Shown: positions 5,651-24,670, counted from the stretch's first letter. The stretch: DNA of 64,000 nucleotides from Nitrospirota bacterium (GCA_021840255.1 JAKBYX010000002.1:33325-97324), one strand, 5' to 3'. Notes: generated by a model not told the origin, from the letters alone. Numbers and translations are program-made.

Positions 5651-5815
5651 GCTATAATACTAACAAAAGAGCGGTCCCAAATAAAAATTCAAGAAATAAA
5701 CAGAAACAAAACAAAAATCAAGAAAGATCGAAAAATTCCTTCCCTGAACAAACGGCAAATCAGGACAAAAAGATAAAAATTTAAAAAACGATCGGCATAA
5801 GGTAAAAAATTCCAA

Positions 5816-7204
5816 ATGATAGATACCGGACTTATGAAAGAGACGCTTGAGGCGGTTCTTGCCTCAGGCGGTGCGGCATATGCCGACCTTTATGTGGAGG
5901 CCAGCAGGAGCACGAGCATCCAGATAGAAGACAGCAAGGTGGAAAAGCTCCTTGAAGGCACCGATTCAGGGGCGGGACTCAGGCTTATCCGCGACGGCAA
6001 GACTTCCTACGCCTATACGAACGAGCTGGCAAAAAAGGCCTTTCTGCAGATGGCCTCCGGGCTCAGGGCCGCGGCCAGCGAGGGACATTTTTCCGGCAAG
6101 GACCTCGATCTGGTGAGGAGGGCCCCGGCCGTGGAGTACACGGTCAAAATAGACCCGGGCCAGGTGCCGCTGGAAAAAAAAGTGAGCATGCTCAAGGAGG
6201 CGGAAAAAGCCGCGCGGTCCTATCACAGCAGCATAAAGCAGGTGAGCGTAACATACCGTGAGCTCGCCCAGAAGGTCCAGATAGCCTCTTCCGAAGGTTT
6301 TCTGGCGATAGACGACCGCATCCAGACCATTTTCCTGATAAATGTGATAGCCCGGGAGGGCGATGTCGTGCAGACGGGCTATGAGCCTATAGGCGGGGCC
6401 ATGGGTTTTGAGATCTTCGATGATACCCCCGCGGTGGAGGCCGCTCTGAAGGCCGCAAAAAAAGCGGTCATGATGCTTAAGGCAAGGAGGGCCCCGGGCG
6501 GAAGAATGCCCGTCGTCATATCTTCCCAGGCTGGCGGAACGATGATCCACGAGGCAGTTGGTCACGGCCTGGAGGCTGATCTTTCGCAGCAGGGCCTTTC
6601 GATCTATTCAGGCAAAATGGGGCAGAAGATCGCAGCGGATATAATCTCAGTGGTCGATGACGCGACTATCCCCGGGAAGCGCGGGTCTTTCAGGTTCGAC
6701 GACGAGGGTACTCCCGCCCAGAAGACCGTGCTCATAAAAGACGGTGTGCTCACGGGTTTCATGTACGACAGGCTTTCGGCCATGAAGGCCGGGGCCAGCC
6801 CGACCGGAAACGGCAGGAGGCAGTCCTACCGGCACAGGCCCATTCCCAGGATGACCAATACGATGATCAGCCCCGGCAAGACGCCCGCCGGGGAGATACT
6901 TAAAAGTACGCCCAAGGGTCTTCTCGTAAAAAAGATGGGCGGCGGCCAGGTAAACACACTGACTGGCGATTTTGTTTTTGATGTCCAGGAAGGCTATCTC
7001 ATAGAGGACGGCCAGGCCGGCCCCCCGGTGCGCGGCGCCACGCTGGCAGGCAACGGGCCGCGCGTTCTCATGGAAATAGACATGGCCGGGGCCGACCTCG
7101 GGTTCTCGATAGGCACCTGCGGCAAGGATTCCCAGGGGGTCCCGGTTTCCGATGCCCAGCCTACCATCAGGGTCCCTGAATTGGTGGTTGGCGGCGCTTC
7201 CTAA
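5816..7204 (+). CDS. tldD: TldD-family metalloprotease
   Basis: HEAVGHGLEAD metal-binding motif. Length is 462 aa, and the C-terminal GGQV..TGDFVF pattern matches the TldD/PmbA fold. Confidence 0.85.
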   Translation: MIDTGLMKETLEAVLASGGAAYADLYVEASRSTSIQIEDSKVEKLLEGTDSGAGLRLIRDGKTSYAYTNELAKKAFLQMASGLRAAASEGHFSGKDLDLVRRAPAVEYTVKIDPGQVPLEKKVSMLKEAEKAARSYHSSIKQVSVTYRELAQKVQIASSEGFLAIDDRIQTIFLINVIAREGDVVQTGYEPIGGAMGFEIFDDTPAVEAALKAAKKAVMMLKARRAPGGRMPVVISSQAGGTMIHEAVGHGLEADLSQQGLSIYSGKMGQKIAADIISVVDDATIPGKRGSFRFDDEGTPAQKTVLIKDGVLTGFMYDRLSAMKAGASPTGNGRRQSYRHRPIPRMTNTMISPGKTPAGEILKSTPKGLLVKKMGGGQVNTLTGDFVFDVQEGYLIEDGQAGPPVRGATLAGNGPRVLMEIDMAGADLGFSIGTCGKDSQGVPVSDAQPTIRVPELVVGGAS

Positions 7205-15091: not shown

Positions 15092-16324
15092 ATGAGTTCA
15101 AATTCTACGGGAGAGTCCAGGACGGGGTTCAGGGTGCTTGGGGCCATAAGCTTCTCGCATTTTCTGAACGACACCATGCAGTCCCTGATCCTTGCGATCT
15201 ACCCCTTGCTTAAAGGCAAGTTCCAGCTTAACTTTGCCCAGATCGGGCTGATAACCTTAAGTTACCAGCTCACGGCTTCCCTGCTTCAGCCCCTGGTGGG
15301 GCTTTATACGGACCATCATCCGAAACCCTATTCGCTTACCCTGGGTATGGGATGCACGCTCGTTGGCCTTCTGCTGCTGGGGGTAGCTCCCAGCTACGGC
15401 TGGGTCCTTTTGGCGGCCGCTTTGGTTGGCACCGGGTCTTCCATCTTCCACCCGGAGTCCTCTCGGGTGGCCCGCATGGCCTCCGGCGGACGGCACGGGC
15501 TGGCCCAATCTTTTTTCCAGGTAGGCGGCAATATGGGCACCGCGATGGGCCCCCTGGCTGCGGCATTGATCGTTATCCCCCATGGGCAGGGCAGCGTTGC
15601 CTGGTTCTCGTTGGCAGCGTTCGTGGCCATATTGGTGCTTTGGCAGGTGGGAGGCTGGTACAAGCGCCATCAAAGGCTTGCCACCCAGAGTTCCACTCGC
15701 TGGGGGCTCCACCCGGATCTGCCTGCCAGAAGGGTGATCTTGTCCGTAATTATCCTTCTGATACTGGTATTTTCCAAGTATTTCTATCTGGCCAGTTTCA
15801 GCAGTTATTTTATTTTTTACCTGATGCGCAGGTTCCACCTCACGGTGCAGGCCGCGCAGGTGCATCTCTTTCTGTTCCTGTTTGCGGTCGCAGCCGGCAC
15901 TTTTCTGGGAGGCCCGATAGGCGACCGCATAGGCAGAAAAAAAGTGATCTGGATATCCATACTTGGCACCGCCCCGTTCGCCCTGGCGCTGCCCTATGCC
16001 AACCTGGCCTGGACGGGCATTCTCGCCTTCATTGCCGGTTTCATTCTCGCTTCCGCATTTGCTGCCATTATCGTCTTCGCGCAGGAGCTGATACCGGGCA
16101 AGGTGGGGACCATATCCGGTTTCTTCTTTGGTTTTGCCTTCGGCATGGGCGGCATCGGGGCCGCTGTGCTGGGTAAACTGGCAGACCGGCATGGCATCGT
16201 ATTTGTCTATCACCTGTGCTCGTATCTGCCTCTGCTGGGAATACTTACGGCATTTCTGCCGGATTTGAGGCGAGGGGGGCGAGCGGCCGCCCGTCAGTGG
16301 GCCGGTCCGGACGCTTCCAAATGA
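15092..16324 (+). CDS. MFS transporter (Fsr/fosmidomycin-resistance-like)
   Basis: About 12 predicted TM helices, with N-terminal FSHFLNDTMQSLILAIYPLLK typical of the Fsr subgroup. Confidence 0.8.
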   Translation: MSSNSTGESRTGFRVLGAISFSHFLNDTMQSLILAIYPLLKGKFQLNFAQIGLITLSYQLTASLLQPLVGLYTDHHPKPYSLTLGMGCTLVGLLLLGVAPSYGWVLLAAALVGTGSSIFHPESSRVARMASGGRHGLAQSFFQVGGNMGTAMGPLAAALIVIPHGQGSVAWFSLAAFVAILVLWQVGGWYKRHQRLATQSSTRWGLHPDLPARRVILSVIILLILVFSKYFYLASFSSYFIFYLMRRFHLTVQAAQVHLFLFLFAVAAGTFLGGPIGDRIGRKKVIWISILGTAPFALALPYANLAWTGILAFIAGFILASAFAAIIVFAQELIPGKVGTISGFFFGFAFGMGGIGAAVLGKLADRHGIVFVYHLCSYLPLLGILTAFLPDLRRGGRAAARQWAGPDASK

Positions 16325-17889: not shown

Positions 17890-18951
17890 CTAAAGCTGGC
17901 CCGCGGCCTTTTTAAAAAGCTCATCCAGTCTGGTGGACTCCCTGGCTATTTCCCTAAGCGTCTCAGCCAGCTCCGCCCTGCCTTCCGCCTGGGCCTTTTC
18001 AGCCCATTCAAGATACGTCCTTGCGTGCTCCTCGTTGTGCTCCTTCCAGTGTTCGATAAGTACCTTTAACTTTCCTCCCGTATCGCTCATGTTCTGGTGT
18101 CCTTTCTTTCCGGGTATTGCTCCCGCTTCCTGCGGGACGGCTTTCTGGGCCCTTTCCACTTCGCCCTCCAAATGCTCATGGAAGCCAAAATGGCTGTGTT
18201 TATGCCTGAAGCCTTCATGCCGGTGCGCGTGCTCGTGTATAAGGTTCGCCTTTAAAAGAATATCATTCATTTTAAGTATTTCGGCGGAAGGGCCATCGGC
18301 CAGCACGCGGTGGTCCTCCCCGATCACAATGGAACGCTCCGAGATGTCCTCGATTATATGGAGGTCATGGGTAGCGGTGATTATCGTCTTGCCGGATTCC
18401 TTCAGCTTCATTGCGAGGTCTGCCAGCTCCACCTGGCTTCTGGGGTCCAGTCCGGAGGTGGGCTCATCCAGCAGATAGACATCCGGATTGGTAGAGAGGC
18501 AGGCGCCAAGCGCCACCTTCTTCATCTCCCCGCCGCTTAACTGCCACGGAGAACGGCTGGCCAGTGCGCCTATGCCAAGCAGCTCCATTATGTCTTCGGC
18601 CCTGCCTCTGGCCTCCTGCTCCGAAAGGCCATGCTGGAGCGGGCCGAACATGAGCTCATCCACCACGGTAAGGGAAAAGAGCTGGGCATGCGAGTTTTGG
18701 AACATCATCGCGATCTTTGCCCTTTTGGGCCCTGTAAAAGTTTTTTCACCGAAAACCTTGAGGGAACCTGCCGATGGGGTCAAAAGTCCCTGAAGTATAT
18801 AAAGCAAGGTGCTTTTCCCTGATCCGTTCGTGCCCAGTACGGTCAGCGACTCTCCAAAGGGGAGCGAAAGGTCCACGGAGTCGAGCGCCTTTTGTCCTCC
18901 CTGGTACTCAAAGGATATGTCTTCCAGCTCGAATGCAAAAGAAGAACTCAT
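17890..18951 (-). CDS. nikO: ECF transporter ATPase (NikO/CbiO) with a His-rich C-terminal extension
   Basis: Walker A GTNGSGKST, signature LSGGEMKK, Walker B YLLDEPTSGLD and the H-loop ATHD. I chose the start at MSSSFAFELEDISF (18951). The last ~115 aa are non-ABC: HEHAHRHEGFRHKHSHFGFHEH followed by a helical region. Nickel assignment is inferred from the nikR linkage. Confidence 0.85.
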   Translation of the reverse strand: MSSSFAFELEDISFEYQGGQKALDSVDLSLPFGESLTVLGTNGSGKSTLLYILQGLLTPSAGSLKVFGEKTFTGPKRAKIAMMFQNSHAQLFSLTVVDELMFGPLQHGLSEQEARGRAEDIMELLGIGALASRSPWQLSGGEMKKVALGACLSTNPDVYLLDEPTSGLDPRSQVELADLAMKLKESGKTIITATHDLHIIEDISERSIVIGEDHRVLADGPSAEILKMNDILLKANLIHEHAHRHEGFRHKHSHFGFHEHLEGEVERAQKAVPQEAGAIPGKKGHQNMSDTGGKLKVLIEHWKEHNEEHARTYLEWAEKAQAEGRAELAETLREIARESTRLDELFKKAAGQL

Positions 18952-18982: not shown

Positions 18983-19957
18983 TCATATAATGACCGCAGT
19001 GGCCGCCAGTAGCACGAATGCGGCATCGTGCCAGCCCAACCTGAATGCGGGCAGCCCAGGCTCTTTGATCTCATCCGCCGCCCCCCTGGCCTCCATCGCA
19101 AATTTAAGCTCCCGTCTTAACTCAAGGCTTATGATAAGAAGAGAGGCCGCCCGGGCGCCTACCCATTTTCTGTCCAGCCCGGCTTTCCACGTCCCGCCTT
19201 TACCCAAAAAATATTCCGTTCCCCTTGCCTTGCGGGCCAATATGAACTCCTCAAGCCTTCTGACGAGGAAAAACATATACCTGTAGCTCATGGAAAAGAC
19301 TGTCTTCAAAAAACCCGGTATAAAAAAGCTCACGGCCTTTACCAGTTCCGGCGGCCTGGTCGTAAAGCCGGCAAGCAAAACGATCATGAGAGAGCCCGTC
19401 ACCCTGGCCATGAGCCCCAGCGCAGACAGATATCCCTGCCTGCTTATATAGATGGAATGGCCAAACGGCCATAAAGCACACTTGAAGCGGATTATGGTGA
19501 GGACCGGCTCTCCGGGCGTGACCGCCCCAAGGCATGCGGGCAGGGCGATCACCGCGGTAAAGAGCATCCCCGGAAGCAGCCTTTTCAGATACATCCCGGC
19601 CGGTATCCGGGACAAGACGGCAAGGGCAACGCCCAGCGCGATAAAGCGGCACATGCCGGGTAAAGTATGCTCAAGGCTGAGCCCCGCCAGAAGCAAAACT
19701 ATGACAACCAGTTTTGTCCTTGGTTCCACTTTCTGAAGAAGACCCCGGCGGGAAGCCGTTTTTTCGTTAAAGAGCGCATCCTCCACGAAGGAGAGGACCG
19801 CCTTCAGTGTGCGCTCAAGCACCATGCCGGAATTCAGAAATGGGAAAAGCCTTTTCTCTCCGGAGAAAGCCATTTGGCCTTCGTTTTTCTCTTCCTTTAA
19901 AAGCCAGGCCGGCAAGGCCGTCGAAGGCGCCCTGTTATTTTTTTGTTTTTCCGCCAT
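18983..19957 (-). CDS. nikQ: ECF transporter transmembrane T component (NikQ/CbiQ)
   Basis: Multi-TM protein with EPRTKLVVIVLLL and ARGA/ARG motif regions typical of CbiQ. It lies between the N and O genes. Confidence 0.8.
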   Translation of the reverse strand: MAEKQKNNRAPSTALPAWLLKEEKNEGQMAFSGEKRLFPFLNSGMVLERTLKAVLSFVEDALFNEKTASRRGLLQKVEPRTKLVVIVLLLAGLSLEHTLPGMCRFIALGVALAVLSRIPAGMYLKRLLPGMLFTAVIALPACLGAVTPGEPVLTIIRFKCALWPFGHSIYISRQGYLSALGLMARVTGSLMIVLLAGFTTRPPELVKAVSFFIPGFLKTVFSMSYRYMFFLVRRLEEFILARKARGTEYFLGKGGTWKAGLDRKWVGARAASLLIISLELRRELKFAMEARGAADEIKEPGLPAFRLGWHDAAFVLLAATAVII

Positions 19958-20306
19958 GTTGGTCCTTATGTTTAGATATCAGTTTCCCGATCGTATAAGA
20001 AATGGCGGCCACTATCAGGATCCCGGCCAGGGCAGAGGCCAGATAACCCATGTAACCCGCCCCGTAACCTGCGGCAGGCGCCCTCCACAGGCCGTTTATC
20101 CTCTTAAGGCCCGCGGGCGCATACCCTATCGTCTTTTCAAGCTCCCTCCAGCTCCATTCCCCCCAGGCGCCTCCGGCGCCAAAAAACCTGGGCGCCCAAA
20201 GTCCAAGCGGGGTAAGAAACGCGAAGATGAGCAGCGCTACCCATAGTTTTTGTTTCTTTCGCTTTTGTTTTTGCTTTTGTTCTTGTTTTTTCCCCCGCTT
20301 CGTCAT
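19935..20306 (-). CDS. small membrane component, NikN-like (PDGLE-type domain)
   Basis: Two TM segments flank GAWGEWSWRELEKTIGYAPAGLKR. The gene sits directly after nikM. The N-terminus is MTKRGKKQEQKQKQKRKKQK. The family assignment is from memory of the motif. Confidence 0.5.
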   Translation of the reverse strand: MTKRGKKQEQKQKQKRKKQKLWVALLIFAFLTPLGLWAPRFFGAGGAWGEWSWRELEKTIGYAPAGLKRINGLWRAPAAGYGAGYMGYLASALAGILIVAAISYTIGKLISKHKDQHGGKTKK

Positions 20307-20337: not shown

Positions 20338-21024
20338 TCAGAATATGAGCTCCGGGTGGGATTTAAGCAAATAAGCGAGGGCGAGCACGGTAAAGGCCAC
20401 CTCCGCGAAACCAAAGAGGGTAAGATGCCCTGCCATGAGGGCAGGGATGGTTACCTTCAGCGGGAAAGGGCTGTATAGCGGCCTGCCATCGGCTCCCTTG
20501 TCCAGGATCGGCTGTATGCCAAGTTCAAGCGCGGTAAGGAAGGCCGCCACGTTTATTCCAAAGTAGGCCCCGCATCCCGCGGCAAACAGTATCCTTTTAT
20601 TTTTGTTTTTCTTTTTCTCGATATTTTCTTTTTTCCCGGCCAAAAGCCTGTATAGGGCCCATCCGGCAAAGACCCCGGCAAAGGCCATGTTGAAGCAGTT
20701 CGCGCCATATGAGGTTATCCCGCCGTCCCCAAAAACAAGGGCCTGCACCGCCAGGGCTATGGACATGCATATGAAGGCCGCCCAGGGGCCCAGCACGACG
20801 GCCAGAAGCATCCCACCGGTGGCGTGTCCGGATGTGCCGCCCATGATGGGGACATTGAACATCATGACCACAAAGCTTGCCGCTGCCCCGAGCGCCAGCA
20901 GGGGCGCGTCGGCCGCCTTGAGAGTTTTTTTTAGCTTCCTGCCTGCCACGTACAATAGCCCCAGTGTTACCGCCCAAAAGCTTCCATACGTCTCCGGCCC
21001 CAGGTATCCGTCAGGGATGTGCAT
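20338..21024 (-). CDS. nikM: ECF substrate-capture component NikM/CbiM
   Basis: The MHIPDGYL N-terminus provides the metal-ligating Met1-His2. It has a 6-7 TM CbiM fold and contains a KKENIEKKKNKNK loop insert. Confidence 0.85.
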   Translation of the reverse strand: MHIPDGYLGPETYGSFWAVTLGLLYVAGRKLKKTLKAADAPLLALGAAASFVVMMFNVPIMGGTSGHATGGMLLAVVLGPWAAFICMSIALAVQALVFGDGGITSYGANCFNMAFAGVFAGWALYRLLAGKKENIEKKKNKNKRILFAAGCGAYFGINVAAFLTALELGIQPILDKGADGRPLYSPFPLKVTIPALMAGHLTLFGFAEVAFTVLALAYLLKSHPELIF

Positions 21025-21081: not shown

Positions 21082-21498
21082 TCATTCCAGGCCCTTCCCG
21101 GTGGTTGTTATCGCCAGCTTGCCGTGCTTAACCCCTCTTGTGCCTATGAGCCTGTCCGAGATCGCCCGGAGGTCTCCGGCGGGTCCTTTAAGGACTATCA
21201 CCTCCAGGCAGTTGTGCGCGTCCAGGTGAACATGCATGCTGGAGAGTATCTCCTTGTGGAACTTGTGCTGCAGATCGGTAAGAGTGTTGGCCAGCTCCCG
21301 CGTATGGTGGTCATAAACGAGCGTCACGCTTGCCACCGCTTCCCGCGTCCCTTCCTCCCACTGCTTTTTAACAAGCTCCTCTCTGATCAGGTCGCGGATG
21401 GCCTCGCTCCGGCTTGGATACCCCTTGCCCTCGATAAGCTCATCGAAGTTCTTTAAAAGACCGTCCTCAAGAGAGATGCCAAACCTGGTTATTCCCAT
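21082..21498 (-). CDS. nikR: nickel-responsive regulator NikR
   Basis: Ribbon-helix-helix N-terminus ([35 protein letters not shown]). C-terminal metal site pattern HH..(x)..[17 protein letters not shown]. Confidence 0.9.
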
Positions 21499-21575
21499 TT
21501 AGTGTTATTATTTTCAAAAAAGTGCGAAAAGTCAAGCTAAGGGAAATTGCAAAAGAGCCAACACATTTCGGGAAT

Positions 21576-21604
21576 TTGACATTCATTACCGCTTCTGATT
21601 AAAT
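21576..21604 (+). promoter_or_regulatory. candidate sigma70 promoter for the riboswitch-cbiMN transcript
   Basis: TTGACA (21576-21581), 17-nt spacer, TTAAAT (21599-21604), just upstream of the riboswitch. Confidence 0.4.
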
Positions 21605-21611
21605 GTACGCA

Positions 21612-21778
21612 GACTTACAGGTGCCCTGACGGGCATAAGAGGGAATCCCGTGGAAATCGGGAGCGGTCCCGCCGCTGTAACCGGGGACGAACCTTCAAGT
21701 TAACCACTGTGCTTTTTAAGGGGCATGGGAAGGTGAAGGTAAGGATGAACCGGGAGCCAGAAGACCTGCCTGGAAGTC
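21612..21778 (+). promoter_or_regulatory. cobalamin (B12) riboswitch
   Basis: Conserved core strings: GGTGCC..., AAGAGGGAATCCCGTGGAAATCGGGAGCGGTCCCGCCGCTGTAA, B12-box-like AACCACTG, GGGAAGG, and GAGCCAGAAGACCTGCC. It sits upstream of cbiM. The boundaries are approximate. Confidence 0.85.
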
Positions 21779-21875
21779 ACAGCCTTGAAGACATGTCTTC
21801 TTGTCTTTATGAGAAGCGCGGGCGTGGAAAACCCGTTTCAAGGATGAATTTTCGGGGATGAAGCAAACTGGGTGC

Positions 21876-21915
21876 AATCCCGATGAGCCTAAACGCTCAT
21901 CGGGATTTTTTATTT
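21876..21915 (+). terminator. rho-independent terminator (riboswitch expression platform)
   Basis: A 13-bp perfect stem, AATCCCGATGAGC (21876-21888) with GCTCATCGGGATT (21895-21907), a 6-nt loop, then TTTTTTATTTT. Confidence 0.7.
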
Positions 21916-22015
21916 TGATCAGTCAGGATTTGAAAGAATACCTTGCACTGGTTTGAGAAAAATTAAAAAACAGCTTGAGGATTCTTAACAACTCAATTTT
22001 TCAAAGGAGGTATTT

Positions 22016-22726
22016 ATGCACATCGAAGATGGAATCCTGCCGCCAAGGGCGTGGGGATTCTGGTACGGGGTTGCGATGCTTTTCATTATTCCGGGCATAA
22101 GGGAGATTAAAAGGCGGGTGCGGGAGAACCTGTCATACAAACCGTTTCTTGCCATGGTCGGGGTTGGCGTCTTTGTGATCTCGGCCATGCATCTGCCAGT
22201 CCCCGTGACTGGTTCCTGCTCGCATCCTTGCGGCACGCCGTTGGCGGCTATTATTGTTGGCCCTTTCGCCACTGCTGTGATCTCATTAATCGTTCTCTTT
22301 TTCCAGGCCATCTTTCTGGGGCATGGAGGCATTACCACCATAGGGGCCAACGATTTTTCCATGGGCATAGTGGGAGGGATTTCCGGTTACCTCTGCTGGA
22401 GGCTGATGAGGTGTTTCGATTCTCCCTTATGGCTGGCGGGCGGCATCGCCGGTTTTGTGGGTGACGTGATGACGTACCTGACATCCTCTTTCGAGCTGGC
22501 TTTGAGCCTTCACGGACATATTCCATTGCTGAAACAATGGATGATCTTCTTTGCGGGATATGGTCCCACCCAGTTGCCGTTGGCCGTTGCCGAGGCCGTT
22601 TTCACAGCCGCCGTATTGCAAGTAATGTACAATCGGCGGCCGGATTTATTGCCCGGCATCACGGGTAAAAAGTCCGGCAAAATCGGGAAAATACAGATTA
22701 GGGAGCATGAATATGAGAGCAATTGA
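22016..22726 (+). CDS. cbiM: cobalt ECF substrate-capture component CbiM
   Basis: MHIEDGILPP N-terminus, multi-TM CbiM fold, RBS AAAGGAGG 6 nt upstream, and B12 riboswitch control. Confidence 0.85.
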   Translation: MHIEDGILPPRAWGFWYGVAMLFIIPGIREIKRRVRENLSYKPFLAMVGVGVFVISAMHLPVPVTGSCSHPCGTPLAAIIVGPFATAVISLIVLFFQAIFLGHGGITTIGANDFSMGIVGGISGYLCWRLMRCFDSPLWLAGGIAGFVGDVMTYLTSSFELALSLHGHIPLLKQWMIFFAGYGPTQLPLAVAEAVFTAAVLQVMYNRRPDLLPGITGKKSGKIGKIQIREHEYESN

Positions 22727-23033
22727 AAATGGCGCAGCAGAAACCACTGCCTGGTTTGACCCATTTACGCGCTGGATGCTGATAATCATGTTCGCTATAT
22801 TGATGGCAATTTTCGCCGCCGCAAAATATATGAATATGCACAGCATGCAGGGCGGCGGCACAGACGATACGGTCAACGCCATGGCCTCACAGGCGGCCAA
22901 GGTCAAGGCCCATCCTTTCGTCAATCTGCCCGGGGACGCCCAAGTCGGCGCCTTTTCAGTGGCTAACTTCTTCGCCGGCATGATCGTGGGTCATAACTGG
23001 AAGAGGCTGTTTGAGCGGGAAAAGGTGGATTAA
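22707..23033 (+). CDS. cbiN: CbiN-like small membrane component
   Basis: Two TM segments flank GGGTDDTVNAMA...HPFVNLPGDAQVGAFSVANFFAG, which resembles the CbiN pattern (GGSDG..A......P.F.PL..P.SGEIESLLF). It overlaps the cbiM end by 20 nt. Confidence 0.65.
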   Translation: MNMRAIENGAAETTAWFDPFTRWMLIIMFAILMAIFAAAKYMNMHSMQGGGTDDTVNAMASQAAKVKAHPFVNLPGDAQVGAFSVANFFAGMIVGHNWKRLFEREKVD

Positions 23034-23103
23034 TGTGCAATATGCAGCATTTAACCGGTCTCCAGGCACAACTTGCGTTCACGAAAAAGGAAAACGGCAC
23101 TGA

Positions 23104-23367
23104 ATGAACTACAAGTATTTCGTGCATAGGGACTGCAGTTTTTTCCCGTGCCATGATCTTGCGGAATGGAGATCTTGCCTTTTTTGCTGGTGCCCGCTAT
23201 ACCTACTGGACTGCGGAGGAGACTTCACCTTTAAAACAGGGATAAAAGACTGCTCAAACTGCACTATCCCTCATACCGAAGAAGGATATGATTACGTTCT
23301 TCAAATTATAAACGGCATGAGGCAGGAAATTATCGAGATGCTTTCAATTAACAACGGAAAGGAATAG
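23104..23367 (+). CDS. Cys-rich small-domain protein (cobalamin-context 'cysteine-rich small domain' family)
   Basis: 87 aa with 8 Cys: RDCSFFPCH...RSCLFCWCPLY...DCGGDF....KDCSNCTIPH. I recall this pattern from the zf-like domain found with corrinoid genes. Confidence 0.6.
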   Translation: MNYKYFVHRDCSFFPCHDLAEWRSCLFCWCPLYLLDCGGDFTFKTGIKDCSNCTIPHTEEGYDYVLQIINGMRQEIIEMLSINNGKE

Positions 23368-23371
23368 ATCC

Positions 23372-24136
23372 ATGGCAAGATTCTATAAAAACCTGTGGGC
23401 CTTCTTTTTTCTCGCCGGTTTCTTTCTGCTCCCGGTGCGGGCCTACGCCACGCATCCTCTTATAACGGATGACGCCTTCACTCAGGGCACGGGCAATAAA
23501 GAGACGGAGTTCGACATGGAATACTCGATGAATGAGGACGGGCAGACCAGGCAAGAGGTTTATCAGCTCAAGTCCATAATCTCTTACGGCGTCTCCAAAA
23601 ATGCGGATTTTGTCCTTACTGTGCCCTATTGGTTCCTTCATGAAGCCGGGCAGGAAGCCGATGGCCTTTCGGATGTGACTTTTGAGTACAAATACCGGTT
23701 TTATGGGGAAAGCCATTTTCTGATCGCCCTGAAGCCCGGCATTTCCATTCCCACGGGGCATGCCGGCCTCGGCCTTGGGGCGGGAAGACCTAATTACTGG
23801 ATCACACTGATAAGCACGCTAGAGGCAAAACCAAATTTACTCTTCCACGCTAACGCGCAATTCATTTACCAGCCAAACACTTCCGGATATATAGAGAAGA
23901 CTTTCAATCTCACCCTGGCCACGGCATATGGATTTACGAAAAAAATGAGACTGGTTGGCAACATAGGAACAAGCAACAACCCCGGCACGGTCAGTCTTAC
24001 TCCTAAAAATTTCATCCTTGCCGGACTGGTGTATTCCCCTACCGGAAGTTTTGACGTCGACGGGGGAATAAAAGCGGGATTCAACCGGCCCGGAGCCAAT
24101 TACGGACTGCTATTCGGTCTAACCAAGAGATTTTAG
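23372..24136 (+). CDS. small outer-membrane beta-barrel protein (MetA-pathway/'transporter' OMP family-like)
   Basis: Signal peptide ...LLPVRAYA|THPLITDDA, alternating beta-strand pattern and a C-terminal aromatic residue (..LTKRF). The N-terminal HPLxTDDA motif is as in that OMP family. Confidence 0.65.
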   Translation: MARFYKNLWAFFFLAGFFLLPVRAYATHPLITDDAFTQGTGNKETEFDMEYSMNEDGQTRQEVYQLKSIISYGVSKNADFVLTVPYWFLHEAGQEADGLSDVTFEYKYRFYGESHFLIALKPGISIPTGHAGLGLGAGRPNYWITLISTLEAKPNLLFHANAQFIYQPNTSGYIEKTFNLTLATAYGFTKKMRLVGNIGTSNNPGTVSLTPKNFILAGLVYSPTGSFDVDGGIKAGFNRPGANYGLLFGLTKRF

Positions 24137-24205: not shown

Positions 24206-24670
24206 TTAAGCCTTGCTCTTGCCCTCAAAGAGGTTTTTAACCTCCTGCATGAGTTCTCCAATGTCCTTGAAATGGCGGTAGACGGAGGCGAACCTTACAT
24301 ATGCCACCATATCCAGGCCCTTGAGGGCGTTCATTACTTCCTCGCCTATAAGCGAGCTGGGGGTTTCTTTTACACCAAGCGCCAGCACTTTTCTTTCTAT
24401 GGAATTCACGGCGTCTTCCATCTGCTGGGTGGAGACGGGCCTTTTGCCGCAGGCCATTTTAAGCCCGTGCAATATCTTATGCCGCTCGAAGGGCTCCCGC
24501 CTGCCGTCTTTCTTCACGATAAGGGGCATCACCTCTTCTATGCGTTCGTAGGAGGTAAAGCGCCGCTCGCACCCCAGGCATTCCCGGCGGCGGCGTATCA
24601 GGTCTCCGTCCTTGCTTGTTCTGGAGTCTATTACCTTGTCTTCAAGATGGCCGCAAAAGGGACATTTCAT
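24206..24670 (-). CDS. nrdR: transcriptional repressor NrdR
   Basis: [17 protein letters not shown] zinc ribbon followed by an ATP-cone. Confidence 0.9.

Follow-up and report, generated by a model that had tools for sequence, protein, structure and literature searches.

A cobalamin riboswitch operon encoding CbiM and a CbiN-like protein, without cbiQ and cbiO genes of its own, beside a nickel transporter operon in a Nitrospirota bacterium

Canonical cbiMNQO operons under the control of a B12 riboswitch are well known (PMC13119186, PMC7689651). The passage of nickel and cobalt across the outer membrane is credited to porins or TonB-dependent receptors (PMC7689651, PMC11247825), and no cobalt-specific outer-membrane component is confirmed according to a 2021 review (PMC7689651). 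In this study, we analyzed a riboswitch-led operon in a 64-kb stretch of DNA from a Nitrospirota bacterium (GCA_021840255.1, JAKBYX010000002.1:33325-97324). This stretch is referred to as the window, and all window-wide searches were limited to it. The operon encodes CbiM, a CbiN-like protein, a cysteine-rich PF04071 protein (zf), and an outer-membrane protein (OMP), and it adjoins a divergent nikR-nikMNQO operon. The locus joins a cobalt S unit of the energy-coupling factor (ECF) type that has no module of its own to a repurposed barrel family and an accessory of the B12 regulon. Taken as a whole, the locus is best explained as a B12-repressed Co2+ acquisition operon of an anaerobic diderm bacterium, and we consider this explanation about as probable as all others combined.

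Structure and conservation of the operon

An initial annotation, made from the sequence alone, had placed a cobalamin riboswitch core at 21612-21778 and a 13-bp terminator hairpin with a T-run at 21876-21915. A covariance scan with Rfam returned the RF00174 aptamer at 21602-21787 with 120.8 bits against a gathering threshold of 31.5. The match covered the whole aptamer model and was the sole Rfam match in the window. The terminator was also recovered. It starts 89 nt past the aptamer, and its stem (21876-21907) contains 13 pairs, 7 of them G-C, followed by TTTTATTTTG. The region 21788-21920 folded at -44.7 kcal/mol (z -2.97), with the terminator hairpin intact and dominant. The leader is 72-83% identical to the leaders before cbiM in L001, L003, and L008 (L-numbers designate loci of relatives; L001 is GCA_021813765.1). 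The terminator stem, AATCCCGATG...CATCGGGATT, is kept in these three loci with different loops. With a terminator that is both present and conserved, the expression platform could switch the downstream genes. The earlier reading of riboswitch-gated cobalt uptake holds. In the window, about 80 extra nt (21916-22000) separate the T-run from the ribosome-binding site (RBS) of cbiM; in L001 and L003 the RBS lies within about 25 nt. The candidate promoter of the operon (Table 1) was found by eye and was not returned by a consensus promoter scan, its -10 element having no A at position 2.

The four plus-strand open reading frames (ORFs) that had been described behind the RBS were all present at their places. 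CbiM scored 186.4 bits with PF01891 (cutoff 23.1), 260 bits with NF006184 (180), and 184.3 bits with TIGR00123 (184.15). Its N-terminus is MHIEDGILP, and MHI[EPS][DE]G forms the mature N-terminus in all homologues. The Met-His-x-x-Asp-Gly N-terminal loop is reported to ligate the metal, from the NikM structure (PMC3945884). The second ORF probably starts at 22713, where the RBS spacing is better than at 22707. Its 108-aa product, which had been called CbiN-like, gave no match at E<=5 to any of the Pfam and NCBIfam models, and CbiN PF02553 was no exception. Searched exhaustively, 1.84 billion representatives yielded only 20 relatives. PF02553 was the commonest weak match in this family (3 of the 20 members, best E 0.03), and the family aligns to the canonical-looking CbiN of L008 and L094 through the first transmembrane helix (TM1), G-[TV]-D-[DE], P-[LF]-[IV]-x-L..GD, and TM2. 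The complete cbiMNQO of L003 has a 79%-identical orthologue in the N slot, with cbiM before it and cbiQ after it. The 108-aa protein is called here a putative divergent CbiN equivalent rather than a PF02553 member. One homologue, P0203 (266 aa), runs on into a CbiQ domain (PF02361, E 2.8e-6); N and Q are either truly fused there or come from a gene pair with a frameshift.

No gene for the T component (Q) or the ATPase (O) follows in the operon, and iterative hidden Markov model (HMM) searches with Q and O queries found none in the window besides nikQO. This agrees with the initial annotation, which had assigned the sole Q/O pair of the window to the divergent nikR-linked operon about 500 bp away; the distance from the nikR start (21498) to the cbiM start is 518 bp. 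Group-I ECF systems encode the T and A components with the S unit in one operon, an arrangement that the window cbiMN does not have.

We found the QO-less arrangement in three further loci. The layout recurs in L001, whose OMP is 82% identical to that of the window; the riboswitch there scores 122 bits, and Q/O genes are absent. The order in L008 (OMP 46-48% identical) is riboswitch-cbiM-cbiN-zf-nikR-OMP-nikM-nikN-nikQ on one strand. In L094 (OMP 39% identical), it is nikR-tRNASec-riboswitch-zf-riboswitch-cbiM-cbiN-methyltransferase-OMP-nikM-nikN-nikQ-nikO, with a single Q/O pair for the cluster. QO-less cbiMN adjoins nikMNQ(O) in all four loci (window, L001, L008, and L094), which comprise three gene orders and two CbiM subtypes, and in L008 and L094 it is co-directional with, and upstream of, OMP-nikMNQ(O). 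L003 (OMP 67-68% identical) carries a complete riboswitch-cbiMNQO at the same genomic place, converging on a solitary OMP gene that lies 138 bp from nikR-nikMNQO; it has no zf gene. The absence of Q/O is not ancestral in the window lineage: this relative, with a CbiM 89% identical to that of the window, retains cbiQO.

The CbiM of the window is 42% identical to that of L008, which, like the CbiM of L094, belongs to a signal-peptide subtype. The CbiN proteins of the window and L008 are 24% identical (22016-23033 versus 5790-6811). Between the same two loci, identity is 70-81% for zf, NikM, NikR, NrdR, and SHMT and 72% for the riboswitch leader, whose terminator stem is shared. Since CbiMN diverged while the neighbours, the leader, and the terminator stem stayed alike, the comparison suggests that cbiMN was replaced in place between the two lineages. 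Both CbiM subtypes ended without Q/O beside nikMNQ(O). The ratio of nonsynonymous to synonymous substitution rates (omega) between the window and L001 was 0.085 for cbiM, 0.105 for the cbiN-like gene, 0.088 for zf, and 0.084 for omp, at dS values of 0.7-1.4. Because omega was 0.084-0.105 between two QO-less lineages, the QO-less unit is maintained by strong purifying selection (omega about 0.09, window versus L001).

Table 1. Positions of the features of the riboswitch-led operon and of the divergent nik operon in the window
Feature	Position	Strand	Basis
Candidate sigma-70 promoter of the riboswitch operon	21576..21604	+	-35 TTGACA 21576-21581, 17-nt spacer, -10 TTAAAT 21599-21604; by eye
Cobalamin riboswitch aptamer RF00174	21602..21787	+	120.8 bits, E 9e-30, model positions 1-189
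Intrinsic terminator of the expression platform	21876..21915	+	13-bp stem, 6-nt loop, T-run
cbiM, S component of ECF Co/Ni transporter	22016..22726	+	PF01891, NF006184, TIGR00123
Putative divergent CbiN-like partner with two transmembrane helices, 108 aa	22707..23033	+	Position, topology, weak family-level similarity
PF04071 'cysteine-rich small domain' protein (zf), 87 aa	23104..23367	+	PF04071 77.3 bits
Predicted outer-membrane beta-barrel (omp), COG4313/PF13557, 254 aa	23372..24136	+	PF13557 33.9 bits
NikR-box-like element TTCGCAC-N13-ATAACAC	21502..21528	-	By eye; overlaps nikR promoter; weak
nikR, first gene of the divergent nickel operon	21082..21498	-	NF003381 212 bits; PF08753 and PF01402
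nikM, CbiM-family S component	20338..21024	-	PF01891 202.8 bits; NF008873 275.7 bits
nikN-like, PDGLE-type partner of NikM	19935..20306	-	C-terminal part of fused Nik(MN) model NF005598
nikQ, ECF T component, candidate shared scaffold	18983..19957	-	PF02361 60.6 bits; TIGR02454 101 bits
nikO, ECF-type ATPase with His-rich linker	17890..18951	-	PF00005 and ECF_ATPase models

In the divergent operon, the nikR promoter reads TTGACT-17-AATAAT at 21535-21507, and the NikR-box-like element there has a counterpart in L001, L003, and L008 (GTAGCAC-N13-GTAGCAC). The published NikR consensus had no match anywhere in the window, the cbiMN/OMP operon included, even at 2 mismatches. We assign nikM to nickel from its linkage to nikR and its PDGLE-type N partner; the PDGLE match of the nikN-like protein is weak (E 0.087). 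The C-terminal extension of NikO corresponds to DUF8180 as annotated in the orthologues of L001, L003, and L094. Together with the His-rich stretch HEHAHRHEGFRHKHSHFGFHEH, this extension might serve the ATPase as a tail for metal sensing or regulation.

Two further observations were made in the related loci. At 2897-3910 of L094, two tandem, mutually unrelated cobalamin riboswitches are separated from nikR by a tRNA-Sec gene (54 bits). The first is of the terminator type and controls zf, and the second, with its aptamer abutting the RBS, controls cbiM. L003 has a fluoride riboswitch (51.9 bits, 984-1072) upstream of crcB, which is unrelated to the cbiMN finding.

Energy source of CbiMN

Because the operon contains no T or A components, we propose that CbiMN most likely docks on NikQ-NikO2 of the adjacent nikR-nikMNQO operon. 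Two S units would then draw on one energizing module, a situation known from group-II ECF systems but here confined to one locus. The use of NikQO by CbiMN, which we infer from the genomic arrangement, is favored because all four QO-less loci adjoin a nik operon, two of them co-directionally. In the L094 cluster, no convincing terminator was found between the genes, the hits being at chance level. The initial annotation had suggested that CbiMN either works alone or borrows NikQO. Borrowing gained comparative support from the four loci, and we give the powering of CbiMN by NikQO an even chance.

Several points weigh against such sharing. The operons are divergent in the window and L001, with nikQO behind a NikR-type promoter, and therefore nickel repletion could turn off the supposed shared motor while cobalt is still needed. 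In L008, the gap between zf and nikR holds a promoter-like site, a NikR-like box (GTAGCAC-N13-GTAGCAC), and a weak hairpin, which makes read-through there uncertain. Two unrelated CbiMN subtypes would both need to fit NikQ. Moreover, the window covers 64 kb of the genome, and a cbiQO may lie elsewhere.

CbiMN might instead act alone and independently of ATP. Together with the barrel and the cysteine-rich protein, it would then form a motor-less, low-capacity cobalt route, and the proximity of nik would reflect a shared metal-uptake island. In the Rhodobacter system, basal transport by CbiMN without QO has reportedly been observed. The lack of Q/O in the operon fits this explanation, as do the divergent orientation and separate regulators that decouple cbiMN from nikQO in the window. 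It would also be easier for two unrelated CbiMN subtypes to be QO-less if no specific fit to a T component were needed. However, QO-less cbiMN adjoins nikMNQ(O) in four of four loci and lies immediately upstream and co-directional in two, and the retention of cbiQO in L003, with its 89%-identical CbiM, indicates that this type of CbiM normally uses a module. We consider solitary action unlikely.

Rather unlikely, in our estimate, is that a dedicated cbiQO or a general ECF module elsewhere in the genome serves CbiMN, which would make the operon an ordinary split CbiMNQO. The 64-kb window, part of a contig of at least 140 kb, leaves room in the genome for such a module, and the close relative L003 does have cbiQO. 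Its cbiQO, however, lies in one operon with cbiMN and not apart from it, and the QO-less state recurs in four loci, each beside nikQ(O). In addition, M, Q, and O have been described as universal operon components of metal ECF systems (PMC2667541). Finally, that cbiMN is a decaying, non-functional remnant after loss of cbiQO, as the lack of Q/O genes that a close relative has might indicate, was rejected on dN/dS and is hardly credible, since the four ORFs are intact with omega of about 0.08-0.10 over dS 0.7-1.4 and the metal-ligand N-terminus MH-x-x-DG, the riboswitch, and the terminator are all kept.

The outer-membrane barrel and the cysteine-rich protein

The HMM searches that had been suggested for the 254-aa and 87-aa proteins gave matches to PF13557 (33.9 bits, cutoff 22) and PF04071 (77.3 bits, cutoff 27), respectively. 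The OMP has a hydrophobic N-terminal leader ending in ..AYA and the C-terminus ..KRF. Its AlphaFold2 model, built with 15 homologues, had a predicted local distance difference test score (pLDDT) of 77, a predicted TM-score of 0.74, and about 12 long strands. Foldseek matched the model to FapF (E 5e-10, TM-score 0.69-0.70) and to the COG4313 protein Pput2725 (PDB 4rl8; E 2.6e-8, TM-score 0.68); the OMP profile had no meaningful match among PDB sequences. The earlier proposal of an outer-membrane barrel holds by this model, and the OMP is predicted to be a 12-stranded barrel of the COG4313/PF13557 family. The mature N-terminus, A-x-HPLITDDA-x-T-x-G, is invariant among homologues. Residues 12-31 of the model have a pLDDT below 50, and the plug position of the family is the N-terminal segment. 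In COG4313 barrels, this segment plugs the lumen, and the vestibule of Pput2725 is electronegative and passes ions in vitro (PMC4493636). The OMP family is net acidic (-1 to -22), with H28, D33, D34, E46, D79, D101, E105, E151, and D230 invariant. The TonB-dependent receptor domains PF07715 and PF00593 had no match in the 254 residues of the OMP.

A profile search found at least 534 relatives of the OMP at E<=1e-10, in Deltaproteobacteria, Syntrophales, Nitrospirota, Thermodesulfovibrionales, and Acidobacteriota, and the genomic context was examined in 13 distinct loci. Of these contexts, 10 belong to metal uptake. In seven (window, L001, L003, L008, L007, L092, and L094), the OMP is no more than two genes away from a nik or cbi S-unit gene. 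Two are feoAB operons, with the order FeoA-FeoB-FeoB_associated-OMP in L095 and a FeoB_associated domain fused to the OMP in L010. The context in L096 consists of CooT, three NosL genes, a TonB receptor, and a NikA-like binding protein. Three of the contexts were picked as an unbiased sample by a fixed rule, as the first unexamined matches on contigs of at least 90 kb, and each of them proved to be a metal locus. In L007 and L092, a -35 element TTGACA followed by GTGCTAC-N13-GTAACAC or GTGCCAC-N13-GTAGCAC stands directly before the OMP start. These boxes are the only GTGYYAC-N13-GTRRCAC matches in 93 loci, and they match the delta-proteobacterial NikR consensus of the GTGTTAC-N13/14-GTAACAC type (PMC545781). 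The OMP gene of L003 has its own perfect sigma-70 promoter. From its contexts, the barrel looks like mainly a companion of the nickel regulon or of metal importers, which is under a B12 riboswitch in the window lineage only.

Other features were noted around the OMP genes. In L096 (6866-9475), one of the three NosL paralogues (466 aa) has a faint PF13557 match and is possibly a NosL-barrel fusion; CooT, DUF3842, the TonB receptor, and the NikA-like substrate-binding protein lie on the other side of the OMP from the NosL genes. In L006 (235-2560), a Dissulfurispiraceae metagenome-assembled genome (MAG), DUF2325, PccH, and HycI (a hydrogenase maturation protease) come after the OMP, and this may be a nickel link.

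The OMP had been put forward as a cobalt or corrinoid channel. It stands as a candidate metal channel, but it is not cobalt-specific, most contexts being NikR/nik or feoAB, and the barrel would be far too small for a corrinoid. We infer that the OMP here is a divalent-cation channel passing both Co2+ and Ni2+. A corrinoid substrate is implausible for a 12-strand barrel that is presumably plugged; BtuB, the corrinoid receptor, is a 22-strand barrel. Some observations weigh against a metal channel. The contexts of L005 and L091 (lipases) show no metal link and that of L006 a weak one, and 13 contexts are a small sample of 534 proteins. The characterized COG4313 members are all tied to hydrophobic substrates (PMC4493636). 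The barrel could accordingly carry a hydrophobic or amphipathic molecule, in the manner of a classical COG4313 channel, or else a corrinoid or its precursor, and its metal neighbors would then be incidental. TcpY, SphA, and Pput2725 provide family precedent (PMC4493636), an alpha/beta hydrolase and a patatin are the neighbors of the most distant homologue examined, and control by a B12 riboswitch would fit corrinoid salvage too. We nevertheless regard this as improbable, given that metal uptake accounts for 10 of the 13 contexts, among them feoAB operons and OMP genes with a NikR operator right before them, that BtuB with its 22 strands is much larger than a presumably plugged barrel of 12 strands, and that Pput2725, whose vestibule is electronegative, passes ions in vitro (PMC4493636).

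The zf protein contains 8 Cys, and C11, C16, H17, C25, C28, C30, C37, C50, C53, and H57 are conserved across phyla. We surveyed 80 species-representative loci of its homologues. Iterative HMM searches found cbiM near zf in none of the 80, and PF04071 was rejected as a general companion of QO-less cbiMN. Of the proposed linkage of the OMP and cysteine-rich genes across genomes, the tie to cobalt, nickel, and B12 loci stood, and an association of the cysteine-rich gene with cbiM did not. In nine of the 80 loci, zf is preceded on the same strand by an Rfam-confirmed cobalamin riboswitch, which in most cases is directly adjacent. The closest Nitrospirota homologues (L011-L013) are among the nine, as are several Clostridia. 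One zf copy is in a riboswitch-led operon of a ChlI/ChlD-type chelatase, several are near class II ribonucleotide reductase, and CbiJ, CobT, and CobU are among the immediate neighbors. In L045 (7962-9383, a Lachnospiraceae MAG), a full CbiG (cobalt-precorrin-5A hydrolase) carries PF04071 as an N-terminal fusion, which would be a Rosetta-stone link to the anaerobic B12 pathway. These contexts indicate that PF04071 is a recurrent gene of the B12 regulon in its own right. Weighing against a B12 role, the zf neighbors are mostly unrelated to B12 (141 families among 129 neighbors), and the structure model is poor (pLDDT 64) and had no PDB fold match. Our guess is that zf binds a metal or an Fe-S cluster and assists in handling cobalt or in making corrin anaerobically.

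In L011 (7793-8231), L012 (7765-8210), and L013 (1461-1912), zf stands alone directly after a cobalamin riboswitch of class B, and the RBS borders on the 3' end of that riboswitch. Such an arrangement points to translational control, unlike the terminator-type leader of the window. In two Nitrospirota loci, L020 (3801-6029) and L030 (5514-7742), a class II ribonucleotide reductase (B12-dependent type, TSCPD-containing) lies just upstream of zf. The ribonucleotide reductase regulator gene nrdR converges on the operon in the window, where it is the downstream neighbor (24206-24670), and in L001. In L085 (7024-14479, Anaerovoracaceae), four cobalamin riboswitches lie within 7.5 kb around zf and a 1685-aa surface protein with DUF4430. 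A major facilitator superfamily (MFS) gene beside zf in L011 and L030 was considered as an equivalent of the window MFS gene at 15092-16324 and was rejected, as no specific similarity was found.

Proposed route and comparison with known systems

In the reading that we prefer, a B12-repressed cobalt acquisition operon drawing on NikQO, scarcity of adenosylcobalamin would let RNA polymerase pass the terminator at 21876-21915, and the four proteins would be made. Co2+, and probably also Ni2+, would cross the outer membrane through the 12-stranded COG4313-type barrel. At the inner membrane, Co2+ would be captured by CbiM together with the divergent CbiN-like protein. The 87-aa PF04071 protein may be a cytoplasmic accessory of the B12 regulon, probably metal- or Fe-S-binding, for cobalt handling or anaerobic corrin synthesis. 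We extend this, tentatively and with somewhat less confidence than for the locus itself, to the family level. Barrels of about 230 residues of the COG4313 type may be dedicated outer-membrane divalent-metal channels in anaerobic diderms (Nitrospirota, Desulfobacterota/Syntrophales, and Acidobacteriota), with paralogues wired to NikR/nikMNQO for nickel, to the B12 riboswitch and cbiMN for cobalt, and to feoAB for Fe(II), while NikQO powers both NikMN and CbiMN under two sensors.

If true, a widespread and regulated family of small metal channels would fill the outer-membrane gap for Co2+, Ni2+, and Fe2+ in anaerobes, and part of a family annotated as 'phenol degradation/transporter' would be reassigned. 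Sharing of NikQO would be the first module sharing among metal ECF transporters. A Q/O pair common to nickel and cobalt S units would blur the division between group-I and group-II ECF systems and would raise the question of how a NikR-controlled motor is coordinated with a B12-controlled S unit. PF04071 is marked as a recurrent B12-regulon gene worth biochemical study. We regard the predicted family of small metal channels, along with the recurring single-module Co/Ni cluster, as the chief outcome. Within incomplete coverage of the literature, we found no paper tying PF13557/COG4313 or PF04071 (COG2158) to nickel, cobalt, or B12, no paper that names PF04071 at all, and no earlier description of outer-membrane barrels in feo operons.

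The operon resembles the group-I CbiMNQO systems of Salmonella, Rhodobacter capsulatus, and Geobacter/Geotalea in its MH-x-x-DG CbiM, its small N partner with two transmembrane helices, and its cobalamin riboswitch. It differs from them in lacking cbiQ and cbiO, in an N partner too divergent for PF02553, and in the added genes for PF04071 and an outer-membrane barrel. If NikQO serves both S units, these would compete for docking as do the S components that share one EcfAA'T in group-II systems. The candidate shared module, however, is a metal-type Q/O in the adjoining S-unit operon (the same cluster in L008 and L094) and not at a housekeeping locus. In the PF04071 family, all 8 Cys and 2 His are kept, whereas the cbiMN linkage is particular to the window lineage.

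The OMP shares PF13557, a predicted 12-strand barrel, a conserved segment at the place of the N-terminal plug, and an acidic character with FapF and the COG4313 channels (Pput2725 4rl8, TcpY, and SphA). The known COG4313 members are associated with hydrophobic substrates, whereas genes of the window clade are found with nik, cbi, and feo transporters, with NikR operators, and with a B12 riboswitch. MnoP of Bradyrhizobium is an outer-membrane Mn2+ channel that is co-regulated with mntH. FupA of Francisella mediates outer-membrane uptake of ferrous iron. In concept, both are like what is proposed for the OMP, in that a dedicated, metal-regulated outer-membrane channel is paired with a specific inner-membrane metal importer (PMC9653421, PMC6011978, PMC4905997). 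They differ in metals and regulators and probably belong to other barrel families. The TonB-dependent Ni/Co receptors (FrpB4, NikH, and the predicted B12-riboswitch TonB-dependent transporter of Novosphingobium) provide an outer-membrane Ni/Co step under NikR or a B12 riboswitch (PMC11247825, PMC7689651). Those receptors are 22-strand, energy-coupled barrels, probably for metal chelates, whereas the window OMP would be a passive barrel of 228 residues without a TonB box or such a plug domain.

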